IMG/VR virus record: IMGVR_UViG_3300025316_000011
Span: 17,023-81,022 of that record
From: a virus
Length of the DNA stretch: 64,000 nucleotides
Reading direction: 5' to 3' (one strand)
In this document: piece after piece, positions 36,811-53,517 of the stretch
Layout: the number at the start of each line of letters is the position of its first letter
Position numbering within the stretch: the first letter of the stretch is position 1
The notes under the pieces: generated by a model
Told to the model about the DNA's origin: nothing
Databases searched by the model: none
Seen by the model: the letters and a program-made list of their open reading frames with translations, nothing else
Position numbers and translations under genes: made by a program

Positions 36811-38823
36811 TTATTTCCTCATATACATATCCGCCATCAATTTTGAATAGACCGCATCCTTCATCCTCTGCTTTTGTTTGAGGTCGTCATATTCAACCGG
36901 ACCGTAGATTAGGTTCACTAAAGCCTTGTATCTTTCAGTATCTTGGAGACCTGCGGTTTTAAGTCTTTCCAATTCCAAGGTAGCGTTCTTCGTGGCTACA
37001 TCGGCATCCATGGCTGACTGCGTAAGGCTAAACTGATTAGAAGTCCGTGCGTTTTCCGATTGAGCCTTTGTCTCCATTTCAGCATTAATCCCGGCATACT
37101 GCTCCCCGACTTTATTGGTGGCTTCGATACCAGAAGCGATAAGGCTTGGTATCATGTCGGTTCTGCCTGTTTGGGTAAGTTTCTCCACCCCTGCGTTTAT
37201 CTGCCTTCCTACTTCGTCTAAAGTAGCTTTTGGGTTCTGATAGCGGGGTGTTACCATTGTGGGAGTTCCGGCAGGAGTATTAGGTACTCTTACCTGTTGA
37301 GGTTTGGGTTGAAGAATGGTAATCAGGTTGGCGGCTACATCCCCTAACATTTTCTTTTCAGCATATCCAAATTTAAACTTACTACCTGTTTCAGTTGTTT
37401 TAGACAAATCAGGAGGATTCATCAGAGATTCAGGGTCCATTGTTTGGGGATCTTCTTTTTGAGGGAATAGTCCGCCTGATTTCGCAATATCATCCCATCC
37501 CGATAATGCCATGTCGGGGGTATCTTCAAACGTTGCATGTGGAGGTGTCTTAGGTGCAAAACCTGCCACATTTTCATCATATTTCCAATTAGGGAATGTC
37601 CCTAATCCCTTTGTTTTTCCACTAAGATCAAAAGCAGGATTCTCATATTTCCCTAATCCAATACCACTTGTCTTTAATTTACCTAATCCGATATTACTTT
37701 TAAAATCCCCTCCCGTGTCGGAGGTCCCTGTCCCCAAATCTCCCCTTACTCCTTTTTCAATAGGCACTTCATTGACGGGGCTTTTACTTGTCGGTGCGCC
37801 TGTAAATGGATTTTTGCCTTCCTTTACCAACTGCTTCATCCTTTCTGTATTCGGATGTGCATTACTCGATGTCCCAAACAGTGCGGAGAAATTAACAAGT
37901 CCTGTGTGTGGATTGAAAAATTCATCCCCATCTGGTGGATTATCTGCTCCGTTGACTGCTTTGCCAACACCATTGACATTTGGGATGCTATCGAGAATGG
38001 ATTTTAATGTTTCCCCTGAATTAAGTCTCCCCTGTTGATCTTTGTTTAGAATGGCATGGTTCTTAGGTAACTTTAAATCAATCCCGCCTTGAGCATGTGA
38101 CGGGCCTACAAGCGGCTTTTTGCTTATGATCTTATGGTTGTTATCAAATTCAACAACGATTTCTCCACCTTCGGCTTCAACGGGTGCGGAACCTGACTTG
38201 TTTTTGCCCCCATTTTTAAGAACAGGTTCTTCAAACGTGGCTTCCTTTGGAGTAGAAGGAGATAAGGCTTCCGTTGTCCCTGGTGCATCCATAACGGTCG
38301 AAGTAGGTCCCCCAATCAATGATGTGCTACCTGATCCCGGCAATGCGTTTTGAGTAAATGCGGGAGACGAACCACCTACCGATGCCCCATTTTGTAATAC
38401 AGAAGAAGTCATTCCCGCCCCTTCAAATGCACCTGCGCTATTTAATCCACCAACAACGGATGATGCTGCGCTTGCAACACCCATAACGGTATTATGGGTC
38501 TGCTCCATACCGTTGATTTTGTCAACCTGCTTTGGGTCGAGTTCTGTCCCGTTGATAAGGCTTACGTCACGATATGCTCCCGCCACTTTCCCCAAAGAAC
38601 TCCCTGCGGCATTCTGCGATACTGCGGTTTTACCCGATCTCCGGTATAACTTTTTTTTGGCTTTGTCGGCGGCACTCCCGGCAGCAAAACCATATATGCC
38701 TCCTGCCACGGCACCTACTCCAGCACCTATTAATGTCCCCACTCCTGGAATTACAGACCCTATCGTTCCACCTACGGCAGCACCCGTTACGGCATCGCTA
38801 CCTGCTGTTCCCCATTTATCCAT
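36811..38823 (-). CDS. virion cargo protein with glycine-zipper TM segment
   Basis: GAAVGGTIGSVIPGVGTLIGAGVGAVAGG; EAEGGE...GPSHAQGG motif; follows the muzzle gene. Confidence 0.7.
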   Translation of the reverse strand: MDKWGTAGSDAVTGAAVGGTIGSVIPGVGTLIGAGVGAVAGGIYGFAAGSAADKAKKKLYRRSGKTAVSQNAAGSSLGKVAGAYRDVSLINGTELDPKQVDKINGMEQTHNTVMGVASAASSVVGGLNSAGAFEGAGMTSSVLQNGASVGGSSPAFTQNALPGSGSTSLIGGPTSTVMDAPGTTEALSPSTPKEATFEEPVLKNGGKNKSGSAPVEAEGGEIVVEFDNNHKIISKKPLVGPSHAQGGIDLKLPKNHAILNKDQQGRLNSGETLKSILDSIPNVNGVGKAVNGADNPPDGDEFFNPHTGLVNFSALFGTSSNAHPNTERMKQLVKEGKNPFTGAPTSKSPVNEVPIEKGVRGDLGTGTSDTGGDFKSNIGLGKLKTSGIGLGKYENPAFDLSGKTKGLGTFPNWKYDENVAGFAPKTPPHATFEDTPDMALSGWDDIAKSGGLFPQKEDPQTMDPESLMNPPDLSKTTETGSKFKFGYAEKKMLGDVAANLITILQPKPQQVRVPNTPAGTPTMVTPRYQNPKATLDEVGRQINAGVEKLTQTGRTDMIPSLIASGIEATNKVGEQYAGINAEMETKAQSENARTSNQFSLTQSAMDADVATKNATLELERLKTAGLQDTERYKALVNLIYGPVEYDDLKQKQRMKDAVYSKLMADMYMRK

Positions 38824-38826
38824 AGC

Positions 38827-41800
38827 TTAATCGTATGAGATGTCAAAGTCACTGATTACACTCTTTAACTCTATATCCTGATCTCCTTCATAGACAAGGG
38901 TTACTTTTATCCATATACCTCTTAATTCGCTTGTAGTCTCATAGGCATCATTGTCCGCCGATGTTTGTATAATGACCGGAACGTGCCATTTGTGTTCAAG
39001 GTATTCTGCTACGTTCCAAAAATCACTACTCCCAAAACTATAATATCCCTCTTGGTATTGTGTCGTAAAGGTAATGGAACTTAACGGCACGTTAGCCATT
39101 TCAATATCGAGACTGTTGATAATCTTAACCAATTCGGCTGCGCTTTCCTTTTCAGATACCCCATTGATGATAAATGATATTTTCGTCTGCTGTTTGTTCC
39201 CAAAGAACGTAGCAAAGTTAGGTGTGCCGTCAGCCTTTACCTTTTGATTATACAGATACACCCTGTTATCGGTAATGTAGTCAAATCCTACCCCGATATT
39301 CTTATATCTGCTGTGTTGACTGAAAAGCATGTTCCCCAACGTCAGGTACAAATGCTCTGCAAAAGGGTAGTCCCCTCTATACCCGTCAATCTTTTCGGAA
39401 AAGATAATGGTTCGCATCAAATGACCATTCTCATAGGTAGGGATAGGAAGTAAAAAGGTCATACCTATTTCTTCATTGTCAATGTCTGCATAGGCTACAA
39501 TTCCGCACCCGGATAACGGATCATCCGGTAAATCATCGGAAGCGTCACGGTACGGAGAATAGGCATCCGAAAGTTTGGTAAGTTCATCCTGGATAAATGC
39601 CCTCCCTGATACATCTTCCATGACAAGCCTTGCACCTCCAGACAACATACGTTCGGTGTTTATCTTCCACCATACGTTTTGAATGAAGTCATATCCGTAT
39701 GTCCCCCGCGTTCCGTTGGTAATAGAACTTTTATGCTGTGTGCCAAACCATCCTATCTTTTCTATTTTATCTGAAAAGAAGGTAAGCGATGTACCGAGAA
39801 TTACGTCCTGCCCCTGATTGGTCTGCCCTACTACTTCTTCATTGAAAAATATCTGGTTAGTCCCGTTTCGTTGAACTATAAAGGCTTTTGACATGTTCTT
39901 TCCAATGTAGTTTATGTCCCCGTCCTCAATGGCGAAATCCTGATATGAGTTATCCTGAATTGACCTGTACCCGTCAAGGAATGCCCCCGCAATATGAGCA
40001 TCAGAAGCGTAAACCCTGTTTGGTTTGTTCTGTTCAAAGACAGGCTGCGTTACATCGTAACCCTTATAAGTCTTATCTGACTTTACCTTGTTATACCCAC
40101 TGTTGATCTGTAAGGCTTCTTCCATGTATTTCCCGGCTTCAATGGCAATAAATTGGTCAATGGTTATTCCGTCCACCATGCACTTAGGGAAAAAGGTGTA
40201 TTCGAGGTATTTGTCGGTAGTATTAGCGGCAATGACGTTATTCCTCATTCCGGCATTATACCTACATTCGACGGTAACGCCAATCATAAAGCCATGCTGA
40301 TACCAATAACAGTTCTTGTCAATGAAGTTACGGGCGTATCCGTCCTGCGTGCTACTGCAAATACTATTTTGAGCATCGCTATTGTTGTTGTGCGAAATAT
40401 TGTACCACCTGTGGGTCCTGAACCATACCTTCTGAAGAAAACAATCCCCTTTAAAGCACTGATACATGCTACTGAAATTGTTTATATCATCAAATGTCAC
40501 AAGTTCAGATATGATATTATATTGAGTAAAGGTAGTCCCAAAAGAATCATTGGTAGCCTTTATCCAATCAGAATCCATAGTGTTTTTATATACGCTGACA
40601 ATGCAGGTTCTTTCTTGGTTGTTGTTGTAATTGTAAGGTGATGAAGGGTTGTATTTTGCGTATAAACCTCTCATGGTTTTGTCCGTCGAAATATCCTCAA
40701 CTCCTATATAGGCGGAAGTACCAATATCCCGGTTCCAAATGTGAGAAAATGCTACAAATCCTATGTTCACTCCGTCACCCGTAAGGTGTGAAGTGAAATT
40801 AAGATTTCCTTTACCCTGTAAATGTTCTACCCTTGTTGCACTTACCTTTATATCATCAGAGGAAATAAGATCATCAGCCAACGATATTGCGTTAGCCGCT
40901 GCCATTGGGTTAAGGTCTATCCCGTAGATAGAACTCGAAGCCTTACTTGTGCGGGGTAATACCTTTCTCGCTGCTGTAATGATATATGGGTTTTCACCCG
41001 AAGGAGTAACGGCATCGAACTTAAACAATGGTTTGACCACTGCATTTGTCGGGACAATAATACCACCTTCATCAAACAGTAGGTCGGGGCAAAAGATACC
41101 ATGTTTGTTCCCGTATGGATTAGGGGAGTTAAACATACTCTCTGTATATGCCCCTGCGATGTTATCCCACCGTGCAGGGAGGGTAATCTGATGTTTAGAT
41201 GCTTCCACTATCCCACTGAAATTATAGGCAAAATACCCGTCAAATCCGGTAGGCTTGTAGTCCATACGTGGTGAAGGAGGGGTATGTGCTCCATAATCAT
41301 CGGTGTAACCATAATAGGCATCAACATCTTCATGGACAGTAGGCATATATCCCCGGTAAAGCGGGATGATAGCTGCGGTCAATGGAAAGAATGTAGTAGT
41401 GTTGTTGGCGATATTATGTGTGTCAGGTTGAATGTCTCCTTGAAATGAACATGGGTAGCTTCTGTTTTCATCTGTTACAGCAACACCATGATAACCATGT
41501 AATGATACTCCTTGACAGATAAAGTTGTCTATCCGGTCCGCCCTTGCAAAGTAAAAGCCCACAATGTCGGCAAAGTCAGTCTTATGATTGTTGTAGTAAT
41601 CCCTTGCGTAAGCGGTCATAAAAGATACCCCTGTAATCCTATCCTGCTTTGGAAATGTACTACCTCCATACATGGATGCAGTAGCCCAATCTGCGAACTT
41701 ATAAAGCCCCTTTTCGGTCAACTGACCAAGATTCCCCTGGCATGGGAACGCTTCTGAAATAGTCCCGTCAGAAAACTTGAAAACACATGCAAAAGGATAT

Positions 41801-43077
41801 ACCTGATCTTTGAAATAACCTACGTACTTATATACGTTTTCCGACACCGAATAGGCTGTTAACCCTCCGTTGACGGCATCATTGATATTTGTTGAAGCAA
41901 AATATTCATCATGGTAAAATTCACCTATTACGACCTTGCTGGCAAAGGATATAAGACTATCCCTTTTATAACTCAACGCTGACCGTTTCACGTTAGCCTT
42001 TAAAAGACGTTTCTCTATCTGTGTTTGAGTTTTAGAGATAGGATAAGGGAATGGTTCTTTTAGTATTTCTGTGTATAACAGGCTTTCCTGTGGCTCGTCA
42101 CCGTAAATGGAAAATTGACTTGACGTGCCGGAAATAGGATAGTAGTTTCCGATAAGCCATATATCCCGTTGTGCGGGGCCATTCTCCGTTGTGGCACTAT
42201 AACGGACAACTCCTACCTGAATATAGGAAAAATTAGGATCGAGATTGTCAATGTTTACGTCAATCCTTTTGTTGGTCACATTGTCTATACCCGTAGTCCA
42301 GTTCTTTTCCTGATAACCTACATGGTACTTAGGGACATTCCCAACATCAATGCTCAGCGGTCCTATCTCTTTTACGAAATTTGTTTTCCCGTAATTATAG
42401 GTGAGATAGCGGATATACAGGTATATGTTCCCCGGCTTTAAATACCCTCCATCAACAACCTGAACATCGTTTACCTTTATCTCCTTATTAGTGAATGGAA
42501 CATGGTTTAATGCCCCGTCAAAGTTACTTAAATACACATAACGGGGTACGGATTCCCCCGTCACCTTAAATCCATTATTGATTACCCTGTCGGGATTGTA
42601 GTTATCAATGAAATACAGGTCAACGGTGTTGTCGTAAGACTTTTTAGCAACGACATCGACCTGGTGGTGTATGCTGAAATTGAATTTTGTAGTCCTTAAC
42701 GGAAATGGACCATACGGCGGAGCATTCCCAGCTACGGGCATCCCTCCCCCTAAATTTAGCAACGGGAAATAGTATTTACTGAAACCTGCCGTTGCCCTGT
42801 TTGGAGTAGGATATGTCCCTATCTCTCCTTCTCCCGTAAGTTGATTTAAGGAAAAGATATAAGCCACTCCTTCAAGTTCACAACCCCCGATGATTTCAAA
42901 GCCTTCGGTAATATCAAAAAATTCCACGTTCCCCGGAACAACGGTAGCAATAAGTCCCTTCCCTGCTTTATTGAATACCCTTATTCCAACGGTAGGAAAT
43001 ACAATGATGTCTCCCTTAATGTCGGATACGTCAATGTCTGATATTATGTTCCCCGAAAACTTATTTATCTGCTTCAT
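38827..43077 (-). CDS. tail stabilisation/muzzle protein (crAss-like)
   Basis: 1416 aa, beta-rich; NKFSG.I.SD start, GEIGTYP, YFIDNYNP.R.IN, FKGDCF, LRG.WIKVTL end. Confidence 0.8.
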   Translation of the reverse strand: MKQINKFSGNIISDIDVSDIKGDIIVFPTVGIRVFNKAGKGLIATVVPGNVEFFDITEGFEIIGGCELEGVAYIFSLNQLTGEGEIGTYPTPNRATAGFSKYYFPLLNLGGGMPVAGNAPPYGPFPLRTTKFNFSIHHQVDVVAKKSYDNTVDLYFIDNYNPDRVINNGFKVTGESVPRYVYLSNFDGALNHVPFTNKEIKVNDVQVVDGGYLKPGNIYLYIRYLTYNYGKTNFVKEIGPLSIDVGNVPKYHVGYQEKNWTTGIDNVTNKRIDVNIDNLDPNFSYIQVGVVRYSATTENGPAQRDIWLIGNYYPISGTSSQFSIYGDEPQESLLYTEILKEPFPYPISKTQTQIEKRLLKANVKRSALSYKRDSLISFASKVVIGEFYHDEYFASTNINDAVNGGLTAYSVSENVYKYVGYFKDQVYPFACVFKFSDGTISEAFPCQGNLGQLTEKGLYKFADWATASMYGGSTFPKQDRITGVSFMTAYARDYYNNHKTDFADIVGFYFARADRIDNFICQGVSLHGYHGVAVTDENRSYPCSFQGDIQPDTHNIANNTTTFFPLTAAIIPLYRGYMPTVHEDVDAYYGYTDDYGAHTPPSPRMDYKPTGFDGYFAYNFSGIVEASKHQITLPARWDNIAGAYTESMFNSPNPYGNKHGIFCPDLLFDEGGIIVPTNAVVKPLFKFDAVTPSGENPYIITAARKVLPRTSKASSSIYGIDLNPMAAANAISLADDLISSDDIKVSATRVEHLQGKGNLNFTSHLTGDGVNIGFVAFSHIWNRDIGTSAYIGVEDISTDKTMRGLYAKYNPSSPYNYNNNQERTCIVSVYKNTMDSDWIKATNDSFGTTFTQYNIISELVTFDDINNFSSMYQCFKGDCFLQKVWFRTHRWYNISHNNNSDAQNSICSSTQDGYARNFIDKNCYWYQHGFMIGVTVECRYNAGMRNNVIAANTTDKYLEYTFFPKCMVDGITIDQFIAIEAGKYMEEALQINSGYNKVKSDKTYKGYDVTQPVFEQNKPNRVYASDAHIAGAFLDGYRSIQDNSYQDFAIEDGDINYIGKNMSKAFIVQRNGTNQIFFNEEVVGQTNQGQDVILGTSLTFFSDKIEKIGWFGTQHKSSITNGTRGTYGYDFIQNVWWKINTERMLSGGARLVMEDVSGRAFIQDELTKLSDAYSPYRDASDDLPDDPLSGCGIVAYADIDNEEIGMTFLLPIPTYENGHLMRTIIFSEKIDGYRGDYPFAEHLYLTLGNMLFSQHSRYKNIGVGFDYITDNRVYLYNQKVKADGTPNFATFFGNKQQTKISFIINGVSEKESAAELVKIINSLDIEMANVPLSSITFTTQYQEGYYSFGSSDFWNVAEYLEHKWHVPVIIQTSADNDAYETTSELRGIWIKVTLVYEGDQDIELKSVISDFDISYD

Positions 43078-44459
43078 CTTGTGATAGTCTTTAGGAAACG
43101 ATTAACTTTTGCAGGGACTACTATGGGTTCGGGTTTCTTTTCTTCGGGTTCCTTTTCTGGTTCTTTTGCCGGTGCCGTCGGTTTATCTGAATAGAAGTTT
43201 ACACCAAGTTTATCCATCAACTCAATATGGTCAAAAACTTCATCGAGTTTGTCACTCGGAAAGTCCAAATGTCTTGTTTTAACATCGCCGATTATCCCTT
43301 TTACATTCTCAATAGCTTCTTCAAGTGTGTTTCCGCAAGCGACTACCGCACCAATTTCCTGTAATTTATATGGTTGTGGAATTACCCTTGGAACTCCGTC
43401 AATGACAACGTAGTTTTTAAGGAAAACGTTGTTCCGGTACTTTTCATGTATTTCGACGGAAATAAAATGATCTTCTGAAAATTCAGAATGGATGATAACC
43501 TGAACACCAAACTTGTACTTGGTTATAGGTTCCACAATTTGTCCCATTCCCAATCCCATGTAAATATCGGCAATGTTCTCATACATATACTGCATAAGTT
43601 CTACCGGAGGATGTGGCATTCTGCATGTTGAATCAATAAAATAAGGTTTTTTCTCTTTACCGTACCGGATTTCGGTTGAAAAGTGTTGTTGGTATCCAAC
43701 TGCGGAAAAGGCTTCGGTAAATGCCGTGTTAATAACCTTAATAGGTTCAGGAACGTCTTTTATGTTGATAAACTTTGCCGTATAGGAACAGTCCTTTGTC
43801 TCAATACCACAAAGCATATTTTCGGCAAATTTACCCCCTGCGAAGAAAGTGTCACACCCAAATTCAACCATATCATCATCCCCAATCGGGTCCTGTACGA
43901 GAAATTCAATCTGTTCACGTAAGTCACCTAACCTGTAAGAAATATCATCCAATTCACTTGCTGAAATCCTTTCGTTGATATACTGCATGGTTTCAGTAAT
44001 GCCACGGAGATTTGATATTTTGATAAACTTCTTCTCCTTGTCTTTAAGGTACTCCCGTAACTTAGTTATGCCTTTAATTGGAGTAAAGTCATTAACGGGT
44101 AATCCTTTTGATTTAAGGAACTCTTGTAAATAACTACGGTCAAGTTCAAACTTTTTGCCGTAGAATGAAGAAACAACGTGTTTCCCTATTTTCCGTAAAT
44201 GGTCGGCTAAGTCTCCATCATAAACATCGGTAAATATGATAAGGTCCACCGTCTCATTATCTATAACCTTCCATAAGTCCTCAACCTTCTCAACTCCCGG
44301 AATGCCTACCCCAATGAATCGTGGATTATAGTCAGGAAATCCCGATTGTGTCCAAGGTGTAAAGTAATACACCTTTTTGAACTTAGGAACAAGTAAACGG
44401 GCAAGTTCACAACTCGACCCGTTATCATAAATCAACACAACCGCTTCTTTCGTTATCAT
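43074..44459 (-). CDS. ATP-grasp ligase (GAR-synthetase-like fold)
   Basis: ELDRSYLQEFLKSKGLP, KFIKIS, FLVQDPI, EFGCDTFF.GGKF, STEIR...PYFIDSTCRMPHP. Confidence 0.75.
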   Translation of the reverse strand: MITKEAVVLIYDNGSSCELARLLVPKFKKVYYFTPWTQSGFPDYNPRFIGVGIPGVEKVEDLWKVIDNETVDLIIFTDVYDGDLADHLRKIGKHVVSSFYGKKFELDRSYLQEFLKSKGLPVNDFTPIKGITKLREYLKDKEKKFIKISNLRGITETMQYINERISASELDDISYRLGDLREQIEFLVQDPIGDDDMVEFGCDTFFAGGKFAENMLCGIETKDCSYTAKFINIKDVPEPIKVINTAFTEAFSAVGYQQHFSTEIRYGKEKKPYFIDSTCRMPHPPVELMQYMYENIADIYMGLGMGQIVEPITKYKFGVQVIIHSEFSEDHFISVEIHEKYRNNVFLKNYVVIDGVPRVIPQPYKLQEIGAVVACGNTLEEAIENVKGIIGDVKTRHLDFPSDKLDEVFDHIELMDKLGVNFYSDKPTAPAKEPEKEPEEKKPEPIVVPAKVNRFLKTITR

Positions 44460-44851
44460 AAGGTCATTACAGTTTCATTGTGGCCATTCCATGAAATCCC
44501 CATAAATCCGCAAAGCATCATTTCGATAGAAGTAGCAAGTGCGTGCATGTTCATATATGGACACCTTGGATCAAAACCAGGTTCATCAATATCGCTATGA
44601 AGCCATTCTTCTCGTTCCTTTTCGTAAGCAAGATCAAAGTCCATTATATCCTGTTCTTTAATCTTATAAAAATCTGTAGTAATCCATTCCGCAAGTTCAT
44701 GCAAAGCCACAAGGCAATTATTTACTGTATGCGGCATCTTGGACACCCGGATTTGTAAAGTATCTCCTTCAATCCAATAGTCCCCACACGTTGAGTAACG
44801 CTGACTTTCGTGAGGGATGAACTCAATATTTATCCGGTTGATTTCTGTCAT
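44456..44851 (-). CDS. small zincin-like metal-binding protein
   Basis: QRYSTCGDYW...LVALHELAE...EPG.DP.CPY..MHALATSIE. Confidence 0.55.
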   Translation of the reverse strand: MTEINRINIEFIPHESQRYSTCGDYWIEGDTLQIRVSKMPHTVNNCLVALHELAEWITTDFYKIKEQDIMDFDLAYEKEREEWLHSDIDEPGFDPRCPYMNMHALATSIEMMLCGFMGISWNGHNETVMTL

Positions 44852-45183
44852 TGCTGCGGTTCATTTTCAGGTTGTCCCGGCTGCTGACCCTGCTGACCTC
44901 CACCTTGGCTGAATACCCCCACGATCATCTGTACCAGCTTTTTCACATCGTCAGGCTGTTTGATACTCATGTTACCAAGCGGTTGAGACTGACCATTAGC
45001 ATTCACCGCAATGGTTACATCAACGGATATGCCCCCGCCCTGCCCCGGCTGTTGACCCTGTGTAGGTCCACCTTGTCCCGGCTGCATAGGCTGTTGTCCC
45101 CCCTGCGGAGCCGACATATCGGCATTTACCAATCCATTAGCGGCACAATTCTTAGATTTCTTTTTAGTGGTTTTGTATTTCAT
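44848..45183 (-). CDS. Q/G/P-rich small protein with basic N-terminus
   Basis: MKYKTTKKKSKNCAANG...PQGGQQPMQPGQGG; ATG at 45183. Confidence 0.65.
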   Translation of the reverse strand: MKYKTTKKKSKNCAANGLVNADMSAPQGGQQPMQPGQGGPTQGQQPGQGGGISVDVTIAVNANGQSQPLGNMSIKQPDDVKKLVQMIVGVFSQGGGQQGQQPGQPENEPQQ

Positions 45184-45187
45184 GGTG

Positions 45188-46492
45188 TTACATTTTAAAA
45201 AGGTTGCTGACAAAATTAACGTCCCCGGCAAGGTCTGGCTTGTTGTATAACTGCATCCAATCATCCATGTTTGGGGTGTCCTGCTCTATGCCTTCCCCTG
45301 CTGATCGTGTGCCTGTTGTTGGTGTCTTTGGTAATGGCTTGTTTAAACTTGGCAAAGTGGTCCGCTGAACCGGGAATAAAGTAGTTTTCCCCGGTATCTC
45401 CAACTCCCTGTTTGACTTCTGATAACTTGTCATATCAGCCAACGAAGGAGTTAGATTCTGCGGTAATCCCGGTGGGGTCATTTTGGATTTGTATGACGGG
45501 TCAAACCATCTCCTTATTTCCCCTACCGTTATCTGCTGATCTTTGTCAACGTCAATGGCAGGGTTTAATTTGGCTAACTTTGCTCTTGATTGTTGGTCCG
45601 TCCCAATAGCGTAATCATCCGATTTACCTAATGCAGCGGGATACATATTCGCTATGTAAAGGTCCGATGGTTGTTTTATCTTGTCTTTATACTGGTTCCA
45701 ATATTTAAAGGCAAAAGGCAACTGCTCGGATGCTGTCATGTGCCGCAGTTCTTCGGCAGAAGTCCCCATAGCTTTTGCCGTGGAATCAATCATCTGAACG
45801 ATACCGCTTGCGGACCCATGTGGATTATGTGCGGAGGAATCACCACCGCTTTCGATATGAATAAGCCTGTTAACCCAATCCTTGTTTATCCCTGATTTCT
45901 TGGATAAAGATTCGAGGACGGAGTTAAATTCAGGATCATCCATTGCTTGATGTTTTACACCACCAGCGGCAAATACTTTTCTTGGTTGATCGTCAGCGGC
46001 AGAATATGGGTCCATTAAGGCGGTGCTTGCTCCACCACTTGCATTCTTAATCCCATTCTTACCTTTGGGACTTTGCATTTTATATTTAAACTGTTGTTTA
46101 TCCCCTAACTCACTCCATGTAGGATTATCAATAATAGTATCATTTGATCCTTTTTTACGATATTCCCTAACGTCCCCGAAATTAACACCTTTTGCTGATG
46201 AAGGATATTCTCTCATTTCTGCACCCGGACCCATTGGCACCCATTCATAAGGTGTTGGGACCATGCTTTTCATTGGATGCCTTAACAACGTATTGTTATT
46301 GGATGAGGGGATTCCTGTTGATAGAATAGGCTGCATTGGGATTAATGAGTTTGATGATAAATCAATATCATTAACAATCCCACCCGCTGCTTTATGCGAA
46401 GAATATTTTGCCCCGCCAATCTGCCTTTTTTTGGCATTTAGCAGGTCCATCCGGTTTCCGGTAGTGCTTTTCTTGCGTTTATGGGAGTACAT
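45188..46492 (-). CDS. virion cargo protein with lytic transglycosylase (SLT-like) domain
   Basis: LIHIESGGDSSAHNP..SASGIVQMIDSTA...EQL..A.KY...DLY.A..YP. Confidence 0.8.
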   Translation of the reverse strand: MYSHKRKKSTTGNRMDLLNAKKRQIGGAKYSSHKAAGGIVNDIDLSSNSLIPMQPILSTGIPSSNNNTLLRHPMKSMVPTPYEWVPMGPGAEMREYPSSAKGVNFGDVREYRKKGSNDTIIDNPTWSELGDKQQFKYKMQSPKGKNGIKNASGGASTALMDPYSAADDQPRKVFAAGGVKHQAMDDPEFNSVLESLSKKSGINKDWVNRLIHIESGGDSSAHNPHGSASGIVQMIDSTAKAMGTSAEELRHMTASEQLPFAFKYWNQYKDKIKQPSDLYIANMYPAALGKSDDYAIGTDQQSRAKLAKLNPAIDVDKDQQITVGEIRRWFDPSYKSKMTPPGLPQNLTPSLADMTSYQKSNRELEIPGKTTLFPVQRTTLPSLNKPLPKTPTTGTRSAGEGIEQDTPNMDDWMQLYNKPDLAGDVNFVSNLFKM

Positions 46493-47144
46493 GCCTTACG
46501 TGGTGTTTTACTTCATCCGACAATAACCATAACTTAGCGGGTTGAGGAAATTCATCAAAGGTAATCTTCATCTCCTGGTTAAGTTCATCCCGTGTCTTAA
46601 ACTGTAACGAGTAACATTGTGCTGCCAATATCTCGTTTTCTTTGTTCAACTTTACTTCCTGCCAAAAGTTAGCATTGATTTTTCCCGTCCCGAAGTCTGA
46701 AAACAACGCATTATACACACAGAACCATTCACATGCTAATTCGTGACCACGTTGTATTAACGGCTCCCCCGTTTCCATGTCAATAGGGGACCCGTAGTAG
46801 TCGATTAACGGGTTGGTGACTTTATCCCTTGGGTTGAAGATTAAGTATGAGCCTAAGTCGTTAAACTTAACTCTACCACCATTCCCGTGGCTGCCATGTT
46901 CGGTATAAACATCAACGATACGGTAAGTATTACACGGGACCCGCGCTTTATCGTTATAAACCTTTAACGGGACTTGTGTATAGATATACATATTGTCAAC
47001 GTTGACACAAATCTCGTTTTCAATCTGCATACACCATTCCAATACTTCCGCAGAAGAAACGGCCTTGTTAAAGCCTTTAAGCCGAGCCATGACCCGGTTT
47101 TCGATTTCAGCGTAATTGGCGTATTTATAGTTGTTGTCAGACAT
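46479..47144 (-). CDS. tail tubular/ring protein
   Basis: position after IHF-like gene; V.N.KA.VPC, IDYYG.PID.ETGEPLI...A..WFC pattern. Confidence 0.65.
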   Translation of the reverse strand: MSDNNYKYANYAEIENRVMARLKGFNKAVSSAEVLEWCMQIENEICVNVDNMYIYTQVPLKVYNDKARVPCNTYRIVDVYTEHGSHGNGGRVKFNDLGSYLIFNPRDKVTNPLIDYYGSPIDMETGEPLIQRGHELACEWFCVYNALFSDFGTGKINANFWQEVKLNKENEILAAQCYSLQFKTRDELNQEMKITFDEFPQPAKLWLLSDEVKHHVRHVLP

Positions 47145-47718
47145 TTTTCGGTGGGTCTAAACGCATAATTTCTTTTGCTCTTTCCCCCTCAAACACAGGG
47201 ATATATTCTTTTACTTCTGATAAATCTTTAGAGTAATTTGTCGGGTGATAAGGAACTTCATCATAGTCTTTCCCTGCCTGTACCAACTTACTCAACCTTG
47301 TATATCCGGCCCCATATCTTAACCACGGGAATACTAAGGCAGGTTTCATCTTTCGTTCAAGTTCAGGGGATAAACGAGCATACGCTTTATAGTAATGACC
47401 ACGGAACTTAGACCTCCATCTGTATCCATGACTGACATTCTTAAAGTCCCGTATTGACAAGGCCATATATGGTTCATCATCCACATGGAATCCTACGGTA
47501 ACACCATTCTCAAGAATATCGTTCACTGCCAGTTCCATGTACTTTGTAATGATTGCTTTTGCCAATGTCTCAAGTCTCTCTGTCTTTATTGGTCCTTTAC
47601 CTATGTAATACCTGCGATACAACTGCTTCCACCCGACAAAGTGTATGGGGTATGTGGATTTGTCTCTTAATATATCATATACACTTATTTCCTTAATGTT
47701 TGACTTAGTGTTTATCAT
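47137..47718 (-). CDS. IHF/HU-like protein of crAss-like structural module
   Basis: AIITKYMELAVNDILENG.TV.F....MALSIR; basic; conserved position. Confidence 0.5.
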   Translation of the reverse strand: MINTKSNIKEISVYDILRDKSTYPIHFVGWKQLYRRYYIGKGPIKTERLETLAKAIITKYMELAVNDILENGVTVGFHVDDEPYMALSIRDFKNVSHGYRWRSKFRGHYYKAYARLSPELERKMKPALVFPWLRYGAGYTRLSKLVQAGKDYDEVPYHPTNYSKDLSEVKEYIPVFEGERAKEIMRLDPPKNV

Positions 47719-48136
47719 ATCTTTCTGTTTCTCTTAAGTCTCTTAACCTTACCTGGTCAACGTTTACATTGCGAACATGTTGCCGTATGTTAAACCCTAA
47801 GAACTTTTTGGTCTGTTCAACGACATCGGTATGCCCTCCCGTGGTGGGAGCCGCTATATCTTTTGTCCGGGATGCTTCCCATTTCTCAATGGACCCTCTC
47901 ATATCGGTACTTGGTAATTCTGCTTCAATTAAAGCCGCCATATCAGACGGAATGGTGTAGGTGGCATTACCTACCACAATGTCATAAACGATGATTCCTG
48001 CGCCTTGGCAGGTGTCCCTACATGAATTATAGAGTGAACTTACAGGGGCAATTCTCTGTCCGAGTAAAGCGTATTGCTGTGGTGATAAAAACCACCTTCC
48101 CCCTATCTGCCTGTTTTCGGTTATCTGGACAATCAT
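47705..48136 (-). CDS. hypothetical protein
   Basis: 143-aa coupled ORF in the late operon. Confidence 0.65.
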   Translation of the reverse strand: MIVQITENRQIGGRWFLSPQQYALLGQRIAPVSSLYNSCRDTCQGAGIIVYDIVVGNATYTIPSDMAALIEAELPSTDMRGSIEKWEASRTKDIAAPTTGGHTDVVEQTKKFLGFNIRQHVRNVNVDQVRLRDLRETERYDKH

Positions 48137-48816
48137 TGTTCTTCTTCTGACTGTGGTTTAACTTTCTGCTGTGGTGCCTGTCCTGCTGCCGTTACACTTC
48201 CTCCTACTAGGTCAGCAAGTAACGGTGTTTGTGTGATTGAATTTTTTACGATGATCTTTATGGCTTCTACCGAAGCTGTGGGGAAATTACTTGTTTCGTT
48301 ATCCCATCCCGGAACAGTACGGGGATCTTCAAAGATAGCCACAAGCAATCCTGACGAGAATCCTTTCGGTATATTCTTCATTATGGCAATGTCTCCCAAA
48401 AGGGTGTATATGGGAAATTTTGAAGTCCATCGTGCCGCCTTGCGAGTTACAAAGTCCTGAATGTCCATTCTCGATATTTTCTCGTTATATCCGAGCATTC
48501 CGAAATAGGAAATATTGGCATCCCCGATGAACTTTACGAGTGGTGGTAATTCTGCTTTGTAGTAAACCGTCTTATCGGTAAATACGAATCCTGCGACGGT
48601 ACATGTATCTCTTTGGCATACAACGGGAACATCGGGAAATATCTGAAAGAACCCTTCAATTGGCATCTTTTCAGAAAAGAACTTTTTAAGGACTGAAAGA
48701 TTGGCTTCGACAATTTTATCCTCCACTAACTCAAGGTCAATGGCCAAGTCATTAGTGACGTTGTACTTCTTTAAATCTTCAATTATTTCGTCCCGGAGTG
48801 CCGCTAATGTTGCCAT
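48133..48816 (-). CDS. putative tail ring protein
   Basis: MATL..L..EI...L N-terminus, AIFEDP, FP motif; crAss-like position. Confidence 0.6.
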   Translation of the reverse strand: MATLAALRDEIIEDLKKYNVTNDLAIDLELVEDKIVEANLSVLKKFFSEKMPIEGFFQIFPDVPVVCQRDTCTVAGFVFTDKTVYYKAELPPLVKFIGDANISYFGMLGYNEKISRMDIQDFVTRKAARWTSKFPIYTLLGDIAIMKNIPKGFSSGLLVAIFEDPRTVPGWDNETSNFPTASVEAIKIIVKNSITQTPLLADLVGGSVTAAGQAPQQKVKPQSEEEQ

Positions 48817-48835
48817 ATCCTATTTTTATGTATTA

Positions 48836-48865
48836 AAGGAAAGGGAGGGGGACGATTCCCCCTCC
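48836..48865 (-). terminator. intrinsic terminator
   Basis: GGAGGGGGA-ATCG-TCCCCCTCC then CTTTCCTTT on the minus strand. Confidence 0.7.
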
Positions 48866-48882
48866 GCATTCTACGATAAATG

Positions 48883-50352
48883 TTAGACTACGGCAACGTA
48901 GTCCGTTCCGTGGGTTAGTCCACTCCAAGCATCGAGCAGACCATTGATAGTCGCATTGGCAACAAAGTTTGCATTGTCGGTTACACTTTCGGTCATGTAA
49001 TCGGTCCCGTACCACAGGTTAGTAGAACCCAATCCCTGCTGGATATATACGGCAACACGCATGTTGTAGTTATCCCGGTGCGATGCCCCGTTGAGGGCGG
49101 AAGTGGCAGGATTGTATTCAATGGTGATTTTGTTCCACAGTGAATCTACCGAAGGCTGACCAAGGACAACGAAGTTGCTCAACTTGTCCATGCCCTGTGC
49201 ATTCAGGAACTCGTTGAACACCTGTTTCCATGTCAGGGCGGGCCATACACCTTTCCCGGAATATCCTGCGGAAATAGTTGTGTATGCATCGAGAAGATTG
49301 AACTTCAGCTCATTTGCCCCGGAATAAACATAAATGTCTTTCCGGTTTCCGGTAGTCTTTGCCATGGCAAACACGCTTCCAGCAACTCCAAGGGTCCCGG
49401 CATTGATGTTGGTGGCAATGGTGGATGAAGCGGCTGCGGTGACAATGGTGTTCGATGTACCACCGATAGCGATTTTGATACTTCCAGCTCCGGTAGCAGT
49501 GTTAGCCACTACTGCAAGGTTGAAAGGAGTTACGGTAGCCCATCCAAACTGCGGGAAGTCAATGTAAAACTTCGGGTCCGTGTACTTAGCGTAAATCCAC
49601 ATATAGCGGGTAATTGCCCCGATAGTGGTTACTCCACCTCCGTCAGCGATGTAGAAAATCAACCCAGGGTTTACACTTGTTACAGCGATATGGGTTGCAT
49701 CAATGGCAAAGGCTACGAGGGATGCAGAGAATGTGGCATCGGAATTGAGGGCGTTGATAGTTGCAGCAAGAGAAGCCCCAAGTGCGATAGTCGTAGATAC
49801 ACCTGCTACGATGTATGTCAGAGAATCGGTCACGGCATTGGCAGTAGAGAAAGTGTAAAGCCTTTTAGCGTGGACAATGTTTGGTTCGCGGGTGCTTCTG
49901 AATACGGCCTGGTCGCTTTCGATCTGCGTGATGATATTATCCTCCATGATGATTTTGTCACTGTCAGCCATATAACCGCCCGAAGGGGTCTGGATGGCTT
50001 CGATAACTCCACCGAAGGACTTTGTTGCGGGGTAGTAATCATCATTCATAACCCCCGGCTGCTGCCATTTCCGGTGAACGTTGATTTCATACTCATAATG
50101 GCACATGGCGCACGGGGCGGGAGCATTGACGGCAACGAGAACACTCTTAAAAGCACCTGCTTTGGTGACATCGTTTTTCAACGTTGTCAGTCCGGCAACC
50201 CACGGGATTTGCATTCCTTTGCCTTTGCCTTTCAGCACAAGCATGTGGGGAACAGCCCCTGTGTCAGGGTCTGTAGAAACATAGTATCCAAAATCCTTAA
50301 CGGTTAAGGTATTAATGAGATACTTCATTCGCGGATAATTCAGATTTTCCAT
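48883..50352 (-). CDS. auxiliary capsid/structural protein
   Basis: 489 aa, T/A/G-rich, GC-rich codon usage like the MCP; followed by a terminator. Confidence 0.6.
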   Translation of the reverse strand: MENLNYPRMKYLINTLTVKDFGYYVSTDPDTGAVPHMLVLKGKGKGMQIPWVAGLTTLKNDVTKAGAFKSVLVAVNAPAPCAMCHYEYEINVHRKWQQPGVMNDDYYPATKSFGGVIEAIQTPSGGYMADSDKIIMEDNIITQIESDQAVFRSTREPNIVHAKRLYTFSTANAVTDSLTYIVAGVSTTIALGASLAATINALNSDATFSASLVAFAIDATHIAVTSVNPGLIFYIADGGGVTTIGAITRYMWIYAKYTDPKFYIDFPQFGWATVTPFNLAVVANTATGAGSIKIAIGGTSNTIVTAAASSTIATNINAGTLGVAGSVFAMAKTTGNRKDIYVYSGANELKFNLLDAYTTISAGYSGKGVWPALTWKQVFNEFLNAQGMDKLSNFVVLGQPSVDSLWNKITIEYNPATSALNGASHRDNYNMRVAVYIQQGLGSTNLWYGTDYMTESVTDNANFVANATINGLLDAWSGLTHGTDYVAVV

Positions 50353-50378
50353 TTTTTCAGATATTTGGAAATTACAGA

Positions 50379-51065
50379 TTATTTTCCTTGCTGTGTGACC
50401 ATCATCTCTTGGAGTTTGCTCTTATATCGAGGGTCCCCCCTGTTCTCTAAAAACAACCTCACAGCAATCTCTACTATTTCTTCATTCTGTACTGGATTTG
50501 TTTCAGGGTCCACTTTGTTAAGGTAGGACACTAATACAGGATAGCGATAGTATTCTAAAATCATTTGTCCAGAAGTCCGTCCGATTAGCGAAATAACGTC
50601 ATTGCGGTACTGATAATATGGCCTACCATAGTTCGGCTTGCGATACTTGTTCCATGTCATTACTCCCGCCTGTTCTGATCTGCGAACGTGTGCTTCAAAT
50701 TCCAACCCGTTATCATCACCGATAAATGTTACCCTTAGTCCATGCAAATATAACGGATAATTACCGGACATCAAAAGCCCTGCGGTAGTCATTGAAGTAT
50801 ATGCACTTGGGACAGCGAATGTGCCACCTGACCCTGAAATGACGAGATAGTTTGAACCGTCAGTAAGAACGACAAACTTCTCAAGATCGTCAATCCTTTT
50901 TTGGTTAAACTCTGCCAGAGGGAGTTTCTGCCGCATCCAATCCAAAGTAGCATCTCCATGCCAGCTTTCCCATTCAATGGGAGTGACGGTATGGTTAGCT
51001 ACTTTGCGGATGCCTTGGAGAAACTTACGGTAAGCATCTTCGGCGGTGATGATAAGGTTAGCCAT
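50379..51065 (-). CDS. putative head-tail ring/adaptor protein
   Basis: EFNQKRIDDL, LEYYRYP, EEIVEIAV.LFLEN..DPRY motifs. Confidence 0.65.
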   Translation of the reverse strand: MANLIITAEDAYRKFLQGIRKVANHTVTPIEWESWHGDATLDWMRQKLPLAEFNQKRIDDLEKFVVLTDGSNYLVISGSGGTFAVPSAYTSMTTAGLLMSGNYPLYLHGLRVTFIGDDNGLEFEAHVRRSEQAGVMTWNKYRKPNYGRPYYQYRNDVISLIGRTSGQMILEYYRYPVLVSYLNKVDPETNPVQNEEIVEIAVRLFLENRGDPRYKSKLQEMMVTQQGK

Positions 51066-52053: not shown

Positions 52054-53517
52054 TTACGCCGCCCACGGCATGAAGCAATAGTGAACGGTAGTACGGGACA
52101 CGATACCCGTCTGCCACAGGTGATGTTTGCTGGACCCGTCAACGGAACTTGCCAAATCTTCCTTACCGGAATCAAGGCCATTGACTGTACCGGAAACAGC
52201 GGGACGAAGCTGTACGAGTTCCATCATGTTGTCACCTTCAGCGGTAAATCCGATAGGACAAACGATAGCATCCCATGAACCTTTCTTGTCACCATTGGAC
52301 AGGATTTTCGTGGCACGTTCTTCGTTGTCAAACCAACGGTAACGCATAGGTATAATACGAACTCCCATGAACTCATAGTAAGCATAGTCCATGTTCACGC
52401 CTTTGTCTGCTCCGTCACCAACGACGTTGTTGTTCAGGGTCTTGTATCCAAGTTTGAACATAAGGTCATGGAACGAAGCGATATTGTTGTAACCACCAAC
52501 GATAACGGCTTCTTTTTTGCCTTCTCTGCCGCTGCGAAGGTCAAGGTCCTGCATCATGGAACGGAGGTATTTTTCAGTCCATCCTGCGGTAGTCATGGGG
52601 CGTTCAACGGCTCCATCGTTACCATAGAGGACACCACCACCTGCCATGATTTCCCTGCCACGTTTATCGTGCATAAAAACTTTTCCGTCAACGTCAACGG
52701 TGCTTTTACCGAACAGCATCTGGTATTCGTGATACTTCACGGCCCTTCTCATCATTTCTTTTTCGGCATGGTCGAGATACCCGTAGGATTTTCCACCCTG
52801 TTTGTTCTTGTAGGCGTACCAGTCACGGCTTGGCTTCATTGCCGCGGCACTCCCTGAATAACTCATTTTGACACGCTGCAAGGTAAGGTACGCATGACCC
52901 CATCCATCGAAAGTGTATTTCTCACTCCCGGTTTCAGAAAAGTCATGTTCGTACTGTGTCATACCGACACCGGCTTCTTCGCCTTCGCCCAAAAGCAGGG
53001 GATCGCAGAAATCTTCCGGGTCATTGGTATTTAACCGGACATCGTAACGCATAACTCCGTTGAACTCGGTGGGTTCGTCGGGGTCAAACAAGTACAGTTG
53101 GGTACGGTTGTCGGAAAGTTCAATTACTTCCTTGGGACGGGCCCAGTTATTATCTACATAAATGTAGAATGAGGTTCCCCTGTAACCGGGTTTCGTTGGG
53201 TATGCCGCCGAATAGAACGTAACGCCCGTATCGTTGGCTGTGAAGTGGATTTTGCGCTTCTGCGAAGAAGCGATAGGATACATGATATGGTTTGAAGAAA
53301 CTGTCCTGAATTTGTTGGACCATGTGCCTTCACGCAATCCTGTGGTAAAATAACCTTTGTCGGTTAAGATAGCGGAAAGCGGTGAATATTCCTCATCGTT
53401 AAAAGGCTGATACACTCTTGGGAGCATGTCAGCATCAACTACGGCACTGCGGGTTAGTGAATAACTGGTAATGCTTTCACCAACGACATCTGCGGGTTGA
53501 CCGGGAAGTAATCTCAT
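52054..53517 (-). CDS. major capsid protein (crAss-like)
   Basis: 487 aa after portal and scaffold; YEHDFSETG, EYQMLFGK, GREIMAGGG, SSVDGSS.H motifs; biased codon usage. Confidence 0.85.
   Translation of the reverse strand: MRLLPGQPADVVGESITSYSLTRSAVVDADMLPRVYQPFNDEEYSPLSAILTDKGYFTTGLREGTWSNKFRTVSSNHIMYPIASSQKRKIHFTANDTGVTFYSAAYPTKPGYRGTSFYIYVDNNWARPKEVIELSDNRTQLYLFDPDEPTEFNGVMRYDVRLNTNDPEDFCDPLLLGEGEEAGVGMTQYEHDFSETGSEKYTFDGWGHAYLTLQRVKMSYSGSAAAMKPSRDWYAYKNKQGGKSYGYLDHAEKEMMRRAVKYHEYQMLFGKSTVDVDGKVFMHDKRGREIMAGGGVLYGNDGAVERPMTTAGWTEKYLRSMMQDLDLRSGREGKKEAVIVGGYNNIASFHDLMFKLGYKTLNNNVVGDGADKGVNMDYAYYEFMGVRIIPMRYRWFDNEERATKILSNGDKKGSWDAIVCPIGFTAEGDNMMELVQLRPAVSGTVNGLDSGKEDLASSVDGSSKHHLWQTGIVSRTTVHYCFMPWAA

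Follow-up and report, generated by a model that had tools for sequence, protein, structure and literature searches.

Why would a phage carry an enzyme with the fold of a purine-biosynthesis ligase among the genes for its tail? The question is raised by a locus in the IMG/VR virus record IMGVR_UViG_3300025316_000011, an 81-kb record of which 64,000 nucleotides (positions 17,023 to 81,022) were analysed. This stretch is called the window, and positions refer to it unless another locus is named. On its minus strand lie two neighbouring genes, one for a 461-amino-acid (aa) ATP-grasp ligase at 43074-44459 and one for a 131-aa protein at 44456-44851 that we call ZL, a predicted metal-binding protein that is weakly zincin-like by ORF (open reading frame), alignment and model. 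The ligase has the fold and the conserved catalytic residues of its superfamily, stands outside the PurD family and recurs next to ZL in other viral genomes. The explanation that we prefer, tentatively and with rather less than even confidence, is that the two genes form an accessory module. In it, a carboxylate-amine ligase built on the PurD scaffold, with altered substrate pockets, and a zincin-like His/Glu metal protein would act on a non-purine small molecule.

The ligase has the fold of PurD

The ORF, the model, the matches to PDB folds and the profile together point to a PurD-like four-domain architecture, and the ligase appears to be the founding member of a phage-specific family. It matched no Pfam family at an expect value (E) of 0.1 or below, no PHROG and no NCBIfam model. 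In a collection of 5.8 billion clusters, 20 homologues with 29-64% identity were found, none of them with a Pfam domain. The AlphaFold model of the ligase had a pLDDT (predicted local distance difference test) of 90.2. When it was compared with the PDB by Foldseek, PurD structures ranked first with E values of 1.5e-19 to 1e-17, and the template modelling (TM) scores to Aquifex PurD were 0.70/0.75. The next neighbours, at E 1e-17 to 1e-14, were PurT, PurK, biotin carboxylase, carbamoyl-phosphate synthetase and L-amino-acid ligase. All of the top 50 PDB neighbours were small-molecule ligases or carboxylases, and protein-modifying ATP-grasp enzymes were not among them. A profile of the ligase family found Aquifex PurD in the PDB at E 5.8e-8. 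The fold of glycinamide ribonucleotide (GAR) synthetase, which the initial annotation had assigned to this protein, was thus recovered both by structure and by profile. Matches of the ligase to adenylate kinase, obtained with phmmer against the PDB, were rejected as chance.

Residue counts over a set of 106 non-identical homologues encoded at viral loci showed E105 in every one, K147 in 92, E199 in 99, E220 in 101, K222 in 100, E263 in 91, an acidic residue (D/E) at 276 in 103, R280 in 103 and N295 in 92. In the alignment of the close homologues D276 and R280 were invariant, and in the N domain D12, G14, Y32, P42, G50 and G52 were conserved. The codons at 43620-43634 (minus strand) encode D276-S-T-C-R280, which by its conservation is predicted to be the Mg/phosphate-binding loop; the D276-x-T-C-R280 loop aligns with E-F-N-C-R of Escherichia coli PurD. 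With this fold, a conserved Lys and an acidic/Asn-type Mg loop followed by Arg, the modelled 461-aa protein belongs to the ATP-grasp superfamily. By analogy with that superfamily, it is very probably active through an acyl-phosphate mechanism on a non-purine substrate.

In two lineages (L072/L081 and L084) the same loop is split. An intein-like insert of about 345 aa lies exactly between the T and the C of D-x-T-C-R, at the same site in both, and the ligases that bear it are 775-792 aa long (L072:4296-6674, L081:5779-8157 and L084:5399-7726). The insert starts with Cys and ends with Asn, followed by Cys; its Pfam matches, Intein_splicing with 24 bits and LAGLIDADG_3 with 21.8 bits, lie below the cut-off. 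Inteins tend to occupy essential catalytic sites. Since intein-like inserts split the D-x-T-C-R loop in two lineages, the loop is probably functionally critical.

The C-terminal tail of the ligase, residues 421-461 encoded at 43077-43199 (minus strand), was delimited by model and alignment. It consists of a Pro/Glu/Lys-rich linker, in which the pLDDT falls under 50 between 427 and 443, and of a short helix that spans 450-460. The tail could be aligned only in the nearest, crAss-type homologues (P0001-P0005, P0013 and partly P0010), and in the model it may serve for docking or packaging.

Database names give a mixed picture of the family. The nearest cluster of the ligase in the Atlas has 1,438 members, 96% of them viral, and the large viral ligase clusters carry the automatic name 'biotin carboxylase family protein'. 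In one neighbouring Atlas cluster the Pfam family T4_Y16D covers 48%; Pfam scans of two long ligase forms gave no T4_Y16D match. Two homologues (P0006 and P0007) are named 'predicted RNase H-like HicB family nuclease' in one source, probably in error, since this name conflicts with an ATP-grasp fold.

The ligase is not PurD

With PurD as the closest structure, the simplest answer would be a phage-encoded GAR synthetase. The PurD equivalog model TIGR00877 scored the ligase with 18.7 bits against a cut-off of 288. When 20 members of the ligase family were scanned with Pfam, GARS_A appeared in one (E 0.01) and GARS_C in one (E 0.075). We take the GGREHA stretch of the N domain and the GPNTGGMG stretch of the A domain to be the loops that define the substrate side of PurD. 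In an end-to-end hhalign alignment with E. coli PurD, which has a probability of only 12% with a single-sequence template, these stretches are replaced in the ligase by Y-D-N-G-S-S-C-E and C-S-Y-T-A-K-F-I. In addition, each of the four cellular genomes that hold a ligase homologue (4/4) has a canonical GARS_A gene elsewhere, with 236-270 bits. Because the score lies far below the cut-off, the PurD loops are replaced and the cellular carriers keep a canonical purD, we conclude from the sequence comparisons that the 461-aa ligase is not PurD. The doubt of the initial annotation that it is a plain GAR synthetase was well placed. It had also noted the absence of other purine-pathway genes nearby. 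For PurD itself this holds, as a GARS_A search of the whole 81-kb record was empty; the other purine genes were not searched one by one.

ZL is a small protein with an HExxE helix

Searches of Pfam, PHROG and NCBIfam gave no match for ZL. With a profile, 1,824 members of the family were retrieved from 1.84 billion representatives (50% identity) at E of 0.001 or below. The model, with a pLDDT of 94.1, shows a three-stranded sheet followed by four helices. The family signature is HExxE...FD...EPG...PY..H......E, and its first element is encoded by the codons of H51-E52-L-A-E55 at 44687-44701 (minus strand), which by sequence are a variant of the zincin helix motif HExxH. Among the 150 best representatives H51 was conserved in 149, E52 in 150, E55 in 148, D73 in 150, G92 in 150, H103 in 148 and E110 in 148. 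The HExxH motif itself was not found in them, as the last position was Glu in 148 of the 150, once Ser and once Asp, and never His. H103 and E110 lie on the helix 100-117 and are candidates for further metal ligands; a site of two His and one Glu (H51, H103 and E55) is possible in the model.

Structure searches with ZL gave no match at E of 0.001 or below. The best E values were 0.56 in the PDB and 0.015 in the BFVD (with probabilities up to 0.97), and a search of the ZL profile against the PDB sequences found nothing. The weak structure matches were mostly zincins, namely ACE2, SPRTN, PprI/IrrE (including PprI with single-stranded DNA) and IrrE- and SprT-like viral proteins. In the Atlas the TM score of ZL was 0.53 to an ImmA/IrrE (M78) cluster and 0.50 to an M78/SprT cluster, and one of 11 ZL members had a Pfam match to Peptidase_M78 (E 0.005). 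For the modelled fold 'zincin-like' is a fair, weakly supported description. The zincin-like partner of the initial annotation is therefore kept in part: the faint likeness to M78 and SprT folds agrees with it, but the motif is HExxE rather than HExxH and no match is significant.

A second small protein with an H-E helix occurs in 10 ligase loci. This protein of 95-120 aa (cluster c10, for example L072:7108-7395 and L025:2256-2537) has a canonical HExxH helix; its gene immediately follows ZL in L072 and L081, whereas in a group without ZL it is found 3-4 kb upstream of the ligase. As a homologue of ZL it was rejected: hhalign gave a probability of 5% and a match of 26 columns over the H-E helix only, and homology is not shown.

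Ligase and ZL are linked in many phages

The gene neighbourhoods were surveyed in IMG/VR from both sides. A ligase relative was confirmed in 83 stretches, of which 80 loci were examined, and a ZL relative in 135, of which again 80 were examined. ZL adjoined the ligase in 33 of the 80 ligase loci, 9 times upstream and 24 times downstream (once on the opposite strand). Seen from ZL, a ligase lay within 400 nucleotides in 45 of 80 loci and farther away in 2; no ligase was found in 33, and in 30 of these the flank on either side measured 1.5 kb or more. The ligases that adjoin ZL include divergent ones (E 1e-10 to 1e-17 against the ligase profile), both gene orders occur, and the junctions are often overlaps of 1-4 bases. 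A crAss-type capsid gene was present in 4 of the 48 ligase-bearing records searched, and 3 of these 4 share with the window a ZL gene that immediately precedes the ligase.

The remaining 47 ligase loci had no ZL nearby, and a search of the whole records recovered it in only one of these 47. Among the near-complete records (at least 90%) that have the ligase without an adjacent ZL, 13 of 14 had no ZL anywhere.

How the pairing is distributed was followed on a FastTree tree of 107 non-identical ligases, which is without support values and in which 47 loci had been picked through ZL, so that the counts are biased. The presence of ZL changes at least 14 times on this tree (mean 30.1 and minimum 24 with shuffled labels), and among the 63 ligase-ZL pairs the gene order flips at least 11 times (mean 20.9 and minimum 15 when shuffled). 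Since the adjacency persists through at least 11 order flips and with divergent ligases, selection for the linkage is indicated. In our reading, the linkage is real, repeatedly re-formed and facultative. Judged by its sequence pattern, ZL is very probably a metal enzyme that is functionally tied to the ligase in many phages. A prediction of the ligase-ZL complex gave no answer (score 0.00 against a mark of 0.32, with controls not run) and weighs neither way.

The initial annotation had staked its proposal on the conservation of the ligase-zincin pairing, and the adjacencies from both sides, in both orders, support it on this point. It had also likened the pair to the peptide-tagging systems formed by ATP-grasp ligases and peptidases; their hallmark, obligate co-occurrence, was not found with 33/80 and 45/80 adjacent pairs and 13/14 near-complete records devoid of ZL.

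Gene context in other viruses and in cells

Among GenBank phages only three records matched the ligase. All are metagenome-derived Aquificae/Thermocrinis viruses, and no cultured phage was among the matches. Their ligase homologues are labelled 'phosphoribosylamine-glycine ligase', 'phosphoribosylaminoimidazole carboxylase' or hypothetical. The ZL of the window had no match in the three records. In the Thermocrinis virus BK013347 the ligase homologue stands two small genes after the portal gene; no HExxE was seen by eye in the small genes that flank it, and a search of this locus with the ZL profile was empty.

In IMG/VR one group has the order TerL, Wzy_C-like, AdoMetDC-like, ligase, small gene, portal. 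The AdoMetDC-like gene, for a pyruvoyl-enzyme-like protein of about 125-145 aa with an I-T-E-S or I-E-S motif, lies just upstream of the ligase in eight loci (cluster c13: L005, L011, L013, L014, L019, L020, L021 and L031); in L005 it stands between ZL, which comes first, and the ligase. The members of this cluster share an I-T-E-S motif, and the one that was scanned, L020:136-519, scored 25.4 bits against the cut-off of 25 for Pfam AdoMetDC. In L032 and L039 (cluster c93) the gene was called AdoMetDC-like by motif resemblance alone. In other groups the ligase follows proteins of 1,400-1,900 aa, one of them with a DarB-like PHROG match. In L065, a crAss-type record of 111 kb, the ZL-ligase pair stands beside a protein of at least 1863 aa that ends in a NADAR domain (L065:3-5594). 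Downstream of this pair lies a 1547-aa protein with a His_Phos_1 histidine-phosphatase domain (L065:7620-13257), and a gene resembling homing endonucleases, with GIY-YIG and helix-turn-helix domains, also flanks it.

ZL is found in further combinations. In nine loci (L004 at 7250-7951, L006, L007, L010, L022, L028, L029, L056 and L078) its C-terminus continues into an Erv1/Alr sulfhydryl-oxidase domain; the fusions are 233-236 aa long and are encoded directly downstream of the ligase, and the one scanned scored 31.9 bits against 27.6. A small basic protein with two Cys (cluster c20) is encoded upstream in several of these loci. Ten long forms of ZL were scanned. Eight of them (P0091, P0102, P0119, P0127, P0139, P0155, P0083 and P0125) had an N-terminal HNH nuclease, one with NUMOD3, and one other (P0158) had a C-terminal SET domain. 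By their sequence the HNH-ZL forms could represent homing endonucleases, or could have arisen when two gene calls were merged. Where ZL occurs without the ligase, it lies near portal, terminase, a radical SAM gene or a sigma-like gene.

In cellular genomes the ligase is rare, as only 6 loci were confirmed among 185,579 species genomes. Three of them are on Chitinophagaceae contigs of 0.18-1.2 Mb from metagenome-assembled genomes (L164, L165 and L166), with homologues of 31-35% identity. Their neighbours are PriA, PorP/SprF, GNAT, an outer-membrane barrel and a histidine kinase, and no phage genes were seen. In L165 and L166 a conserved gene for about 211-215 aa lies upstream of the ligase homologue, and all three Chitinophagaceae genomes have a canonical purD. 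On a Bradyrhizobium chromosome the ligase homologue has neighbours from terminase and portal clusters, a prophage-like context. A 163-kb contig binned as uncultured Bacteroides (L163) has one in-frame TGA, at 6268-6270, at the consensus Trp of the ligase homologue (G-K-x-V-W-G). This could be a recoding of TGA to Trp or a broken gene.

The late operon of the window

The pair belongs to a long late operon on the minus strand of the window. The gene at 52054-53517 encodes a crAss-type major capsid protein (Pfam Crass_capsid, 72.2 bits). The gene at 46479-47144 (minus strand) encodes a 221-aa protein like tail ring protein 1 (CrAss_Ring_1, 26.7 bits with a cut-off of 27). At 38827-43077 (minus strand) a 1416-aa muzzle-like protein is encoded, whose crAss_MUZ match is marginally below the cut-off (26.9 versus 27 bits, E 1.7e-6). 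Because of the capsid, ring-1-like and muzzle-like matches, the phage is assigned, by its Pfam domains, to the crAss-like viruses as a divergent member.

Four genes lie between the ring-1-like and the muzzle-like gene. The first, at 45188-46492 (minus strand), encodes a protein of 434 aa, of which roughly residues 185-340 form an SLT lytic transglycosylase domain (Pfam SLT, 22.5 bits with a cut-off of 21.3; PHROG baseplate hub/transglycosylase families, E 1e-21). From these domain matches it is likely a wall-degrading protein that is ejected or tail-associated. The second gene, at 44848-45183 (minus strand), encodes a 111-aa Q/G/P-rich protein with low-complexity arms around a conserved core; ZL and the ligase follow. 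Overlaps of four bases (ATGA) connect the Q/G-rich gene with ZL, ZL with the ligase and the ligase with the muzzle-like gene, whose start lies inside the overlap with the ligase stop. The three genes and their chaining to each other and to the muzzle gene were thus found as first annotated. The stop of the 434-aa gene lies 4 bases upstream of the Q/G-rich start, with no overlap. Two more four-base overlaps occur in the ORF list of the window, at 48133-48136 and 59591-59594, so tight coupling is a general habit of this operon; a run of three was seen only at this cassette.

We take the muzzle gene of the phage crAss001 to be gp44, directly after the ring protein 1 (R1) gene gp43. The designation of gp43 as the R1 gene is given in the accessible part of the crAss001 structure paper (PMC10172136). 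Given this gene order, the genes at 43074-46492 look, by analogy, like a cassette inserted between R1 and muzzle.

A promoter and terminator scan of 38000-50500 gave 32 against 28.3 in shuffles and 12 against 11.3, respectively, which is no excess; it is uninformative on internal transcription units and does not cover Bacteroidota-type promoters. A strong terminator-like hairpin (9 pairs, 7 of them G-C) lies at 48844-48865 (minus strand), after a 489-aa Ala/Thr/Gly-rich ORF at 48883-50352 (minus strand). This ORF is without a Pfam match and is not the capsid gene, which is the one at 52054-53517. Downstream of the muzzle and cargo genes a single ORF of 4884 aa extends over 19750-34404 (minus strand), presumably for a giant packaged multi-domain protein.

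Is the Q/G-rich protein a substrate of the ligase, as had been proposed? Its start was set to the internal ATG at 45183 on the evidence of two homologues of 111 and 110 aa, which keep the central core and the low-complexity arms. These two, with 95% and 62% identity, were the only ones among the 5.8 billion clusters, and neither Pfam nor PHROG gave a match for the protein. A scan of 129 ligase loci covered the ligase strand out to 3 kb and looked for Q/G-rich ORFs with a length of 50-250 aa; it found the window's own and none at the other 128. The Q/G-rich protein is a lineage-specific neighbour and not part of the conserved module, which speaks against its candidacy. A related suggestion was that Gly-ended fragments, produced at A-x-G-G motifs, are ligated. 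No A-x-G-G motif is present in the ligase, ZL or the Q/G-rich protein, and 19 of the 25 window proteins checked are without it. The SLT protein of 434 aa has three copies, where its composition predicts 0.18, and a 670-aa glycine-zipper protein at 36811-38823, minus strand, also has three (0.98 expected). This route is not supported, as the motif is missing from the three cassette proteins and enriched only in the SLT protein. No conserved substrate or tag protein was found beside the ligase, and the small neighbours vary between phage groups.

Possible functions of the pair

In the small-molecule amide module that we tentatively prefer, the ligase would use ATP to phosphorylate a carboxylate to an acyl-phosphate, as its superfamily does, and would hand the acyl group on to an amine. 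In ZL, E52 could act as the general base with a metal held by H51, E55 and H103 (or E110), and ZL would hydrolyse, trim or prepare a related amide in a shared pathway. The enzymatic activity, the hydrolase role of ZL and the class of substrate are what we infer here. We lean towards an amine or amino-acid-type metabolite, possibly polyamine-like, and away from a virion protein; the metabolite would be required during packaging or when the next infection begins. Through their translational coupling to tail and cargo genes, both proteins would be made late and in amounts matched to those of these genes.

Several observations point to a small molecule. The top 50 structures nearest to the ligase are all enzymes of small-molecule chemistry; the whole PurD scaffold is retained, including N and C domains with conserved residues; the AdoMetDC-like gene, whose product would make an amine, recurs as a neighbour; and the chromosomal homologues of the Chitinophagaceae sit without phage genes, while a conserved partner protein was not found.

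A number of points weigh against this explanation. The pairing is facultative and either gene also occurs alone, so ZL would not be required for the ligase to act. The nearest folds of ZL in the model comparisons, M78/IrrE and SprT, are peptidases that act on proteins, and by their domain matches the fusions to Erv1/Alr and SET and the one radical SAM neighbour are protein-modifying company. The position of the ligase beside portal, terminase and very large cargo-type proteins in unrelated phages fits a role on virion or ejected proteins equally. AdoMetDC-like neighbours are confined to some 10 of the 80 loci, and in two of these (c93) the call was made by the motif alone. Finally, the support-free tree and the choice of 47 loci through ZL limit what the counts can carry.

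These points lead to the strongest alternative, a somewhat unlikely but serious one, in which virion proteins or ejected cargo proteins carry an amide or isopeptide modification or cross-link that is written by the ligase and erased or processed by ZL. The ligase might, for instance, add an amino acid or an amine to Glu, Asp or C-termini. It would explain why the ATGA-coupled module lies between ring-1-like and muzzle-like genes, and why the ligase elsewhere is near portal, terminase, DarB-like, NADAR-bearing or other proteins of 1,000-1,900 aa. The zincin peptidases as nearest folds of ZL would fit, as would the Erv1/Alr and SET fusions and the radical SAM neighbour, which are typical modifiers of proteins and peptides. 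The linker and terminal helix of the crAss-type ligases could dock to the particle, and zincin domains with variant sites process packaged polyvalent proteins according to the accessible part of PMC5512222. Against it, no conserved small-protein partner appeared: the Q/G-rich ORF is confined to its lineage and the other small neighbours vary. The 50 structural neighbours of the ligase are all small-molecule enzymes, the chromosomal homologues stand in a non-phage context, and the A-x-G-G motifs are absent from the cassette.

A wider form of this idea, which we consider unlikely, puts the HExxE domain at the hub of a phage toolkit that modifies packaged or ejected proteins. Its partner, separate or fused, would in different phages be an ATP-grasp ligase, Erv1/Alr, SET or radical SAM protein, and the pair in the window would modify tail and cargo proteins or, after ejection, host proteins.

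More doubtful still is that the two are neighbours without a shared pathway, with ZL as a stand-alone metallopeptidase that, much as the MPTase domains do in polyvalent proteins, processes the large proteins packaged with the genome, and with a separate job for the ligase. The 47/80 ligase loci without a nearby ZL, the 13/14 near-complete records without any and the 33/80 ZL loci without a ligase would be expected in this case. The same is true of the ZL genes that stand beside portal or terminase with no ligase, and of the 4884-aa ORF and the other large proteins downstream in the window. Chance neighbours, however, would hardly remain adjacent with divergent ligases, in both orders, through at least 11 flips and with many overlaps of 1-4 bases.

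An improbable alternative is that the ligase modifies a nucleotide or the phage DNA or RNA, for example by acylating an amine-bearing base, with ZL as a zincin associated with nucleic acid. The closest folds (PurD, PurK and PurT) use ribonucleotide acceptors, and the conserved D12, G14, Y32, P42, G50 and G52 of the ligase face an N-domain region of PurD that is presumably its nucleotide site. The weak matches of ZL to SPRTN and PprI-ssDNA, the HNH domain at the N-terminus of 8 of the 10 long ZL forms and the nearby terminase and portal genes also point this way. Against it, no genes for nucleotide metabolism or DNA modification lay beside the pair in the loci examined, the HNH fusions may have the trivial origins given above (one carries NUMOD3), and the nucleotide-binding loops of PurD are not kept in the ligase.

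Very improbable, finally, is an auxiliary metabolic gene, a phage purD that boosts purine synthesis: PurD is the best structural and profile match, the Aquificae virus labels in GenBank name purine enzymes and purD is among the auxiliary genes in the accessible parts of virome surveys, but the 18.7 of 288 bits, an identity of 12-15%, the replaced substrate loops, the canonical purD of the cellular carriers, the empty GARS_A search of the record and the structural genes around the ligase already disfavour it.

Significance of the family pair

Ligase and ZL are a new pair of families within known superfamilies and together a widespread, unstudied module. Both families are large, almost wholly viral and without a Pfam, PHROG or NCBIfam model. 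In the literature searched, which comprised main texts (supplementary tables may list such genes), no paper on either family was found. The text of the Aquificae virus paper (PMC7689252) contains none of the terms ATP-grasp, purK, carboxylase or phosphoribosylaminoimidazole, and the accessible part of the crAss001 structure paper (PMC10172136) mentions no ligase, peptidase or transglycosylase. Because the only GenBank matches carry purine-enzyme names, automatic pipelines will call the ligase a purD or purK 'auxiliary metabolic gene', which is contradicted by the tests presented here. The chemistry of the ligase likely matters for particle formation or early infection, since its catalytic residues are conserved, intein-like inserts sit in its catalytic loop in two lineages and its gene is steadily placed among late and morphogenesis genes. 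The identity of the substrate would add either a new modification of virion or host proteins or a new phage-made metabolite.

Comparison with known systems

The polyvalent-protein MPTase zincins combine a three-stranded sheet and helices with HExxH and a downstream Glu, have many active-site variants and are packaged and injected, according to the accessible part of Iyer et al. 2017 (PMC5512222). ZL resembles them in its place among cargo-type genes, and two of its weak BFVD matches are named 'large polyvalent protein associated'. It differs as a free-standing protein of 131 aa that is not a domain of a giant protein, and its HExxE variant was not met in that part of PMC5512222; the likeness is without demonstrated homology. 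ZL is small like the minimal zincins ImmA/IrrE (M78) and SprT, and in it, as in them, a three-stranded sheet leads into a helix that carries H-E at matching positions, whereas HExxE in place of HExxH and the additional near-invariant D73, E90-P-G, H103 and E110 set it apart.

For the pair as a whole, glutathionylspermidine synthetase/amidase and RimK tagging offer an analogy, since an ATP-dependent amide ligase is combined with a hydrolase that reverses or trims the product; a sequence or structural link to the module was not found. The PurK/PurT/biotin carboxylase branch provides the next-best structural neighbours of the ligase and one GenBank homologue is annotated as PurK, whereas the ligase has no Pfam or NCBIfam membership. 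From PurD itself (2yw2 and 1gso) the phage ligase differs by being only 12-15% identical, by failing TIGR00877 and the Pfam GARS families and by its place in a tail operon without purine neighbours. It shares with PurD the four-domain ATP-grasp architecture, which aligns across some 440 columns (TM 0.70/0.75), an alignable C domain, the ATP-binding Lys and the D/E-x-N/T-x-R Mg loop that is followed by an R-x-G/P-x-P stretch.

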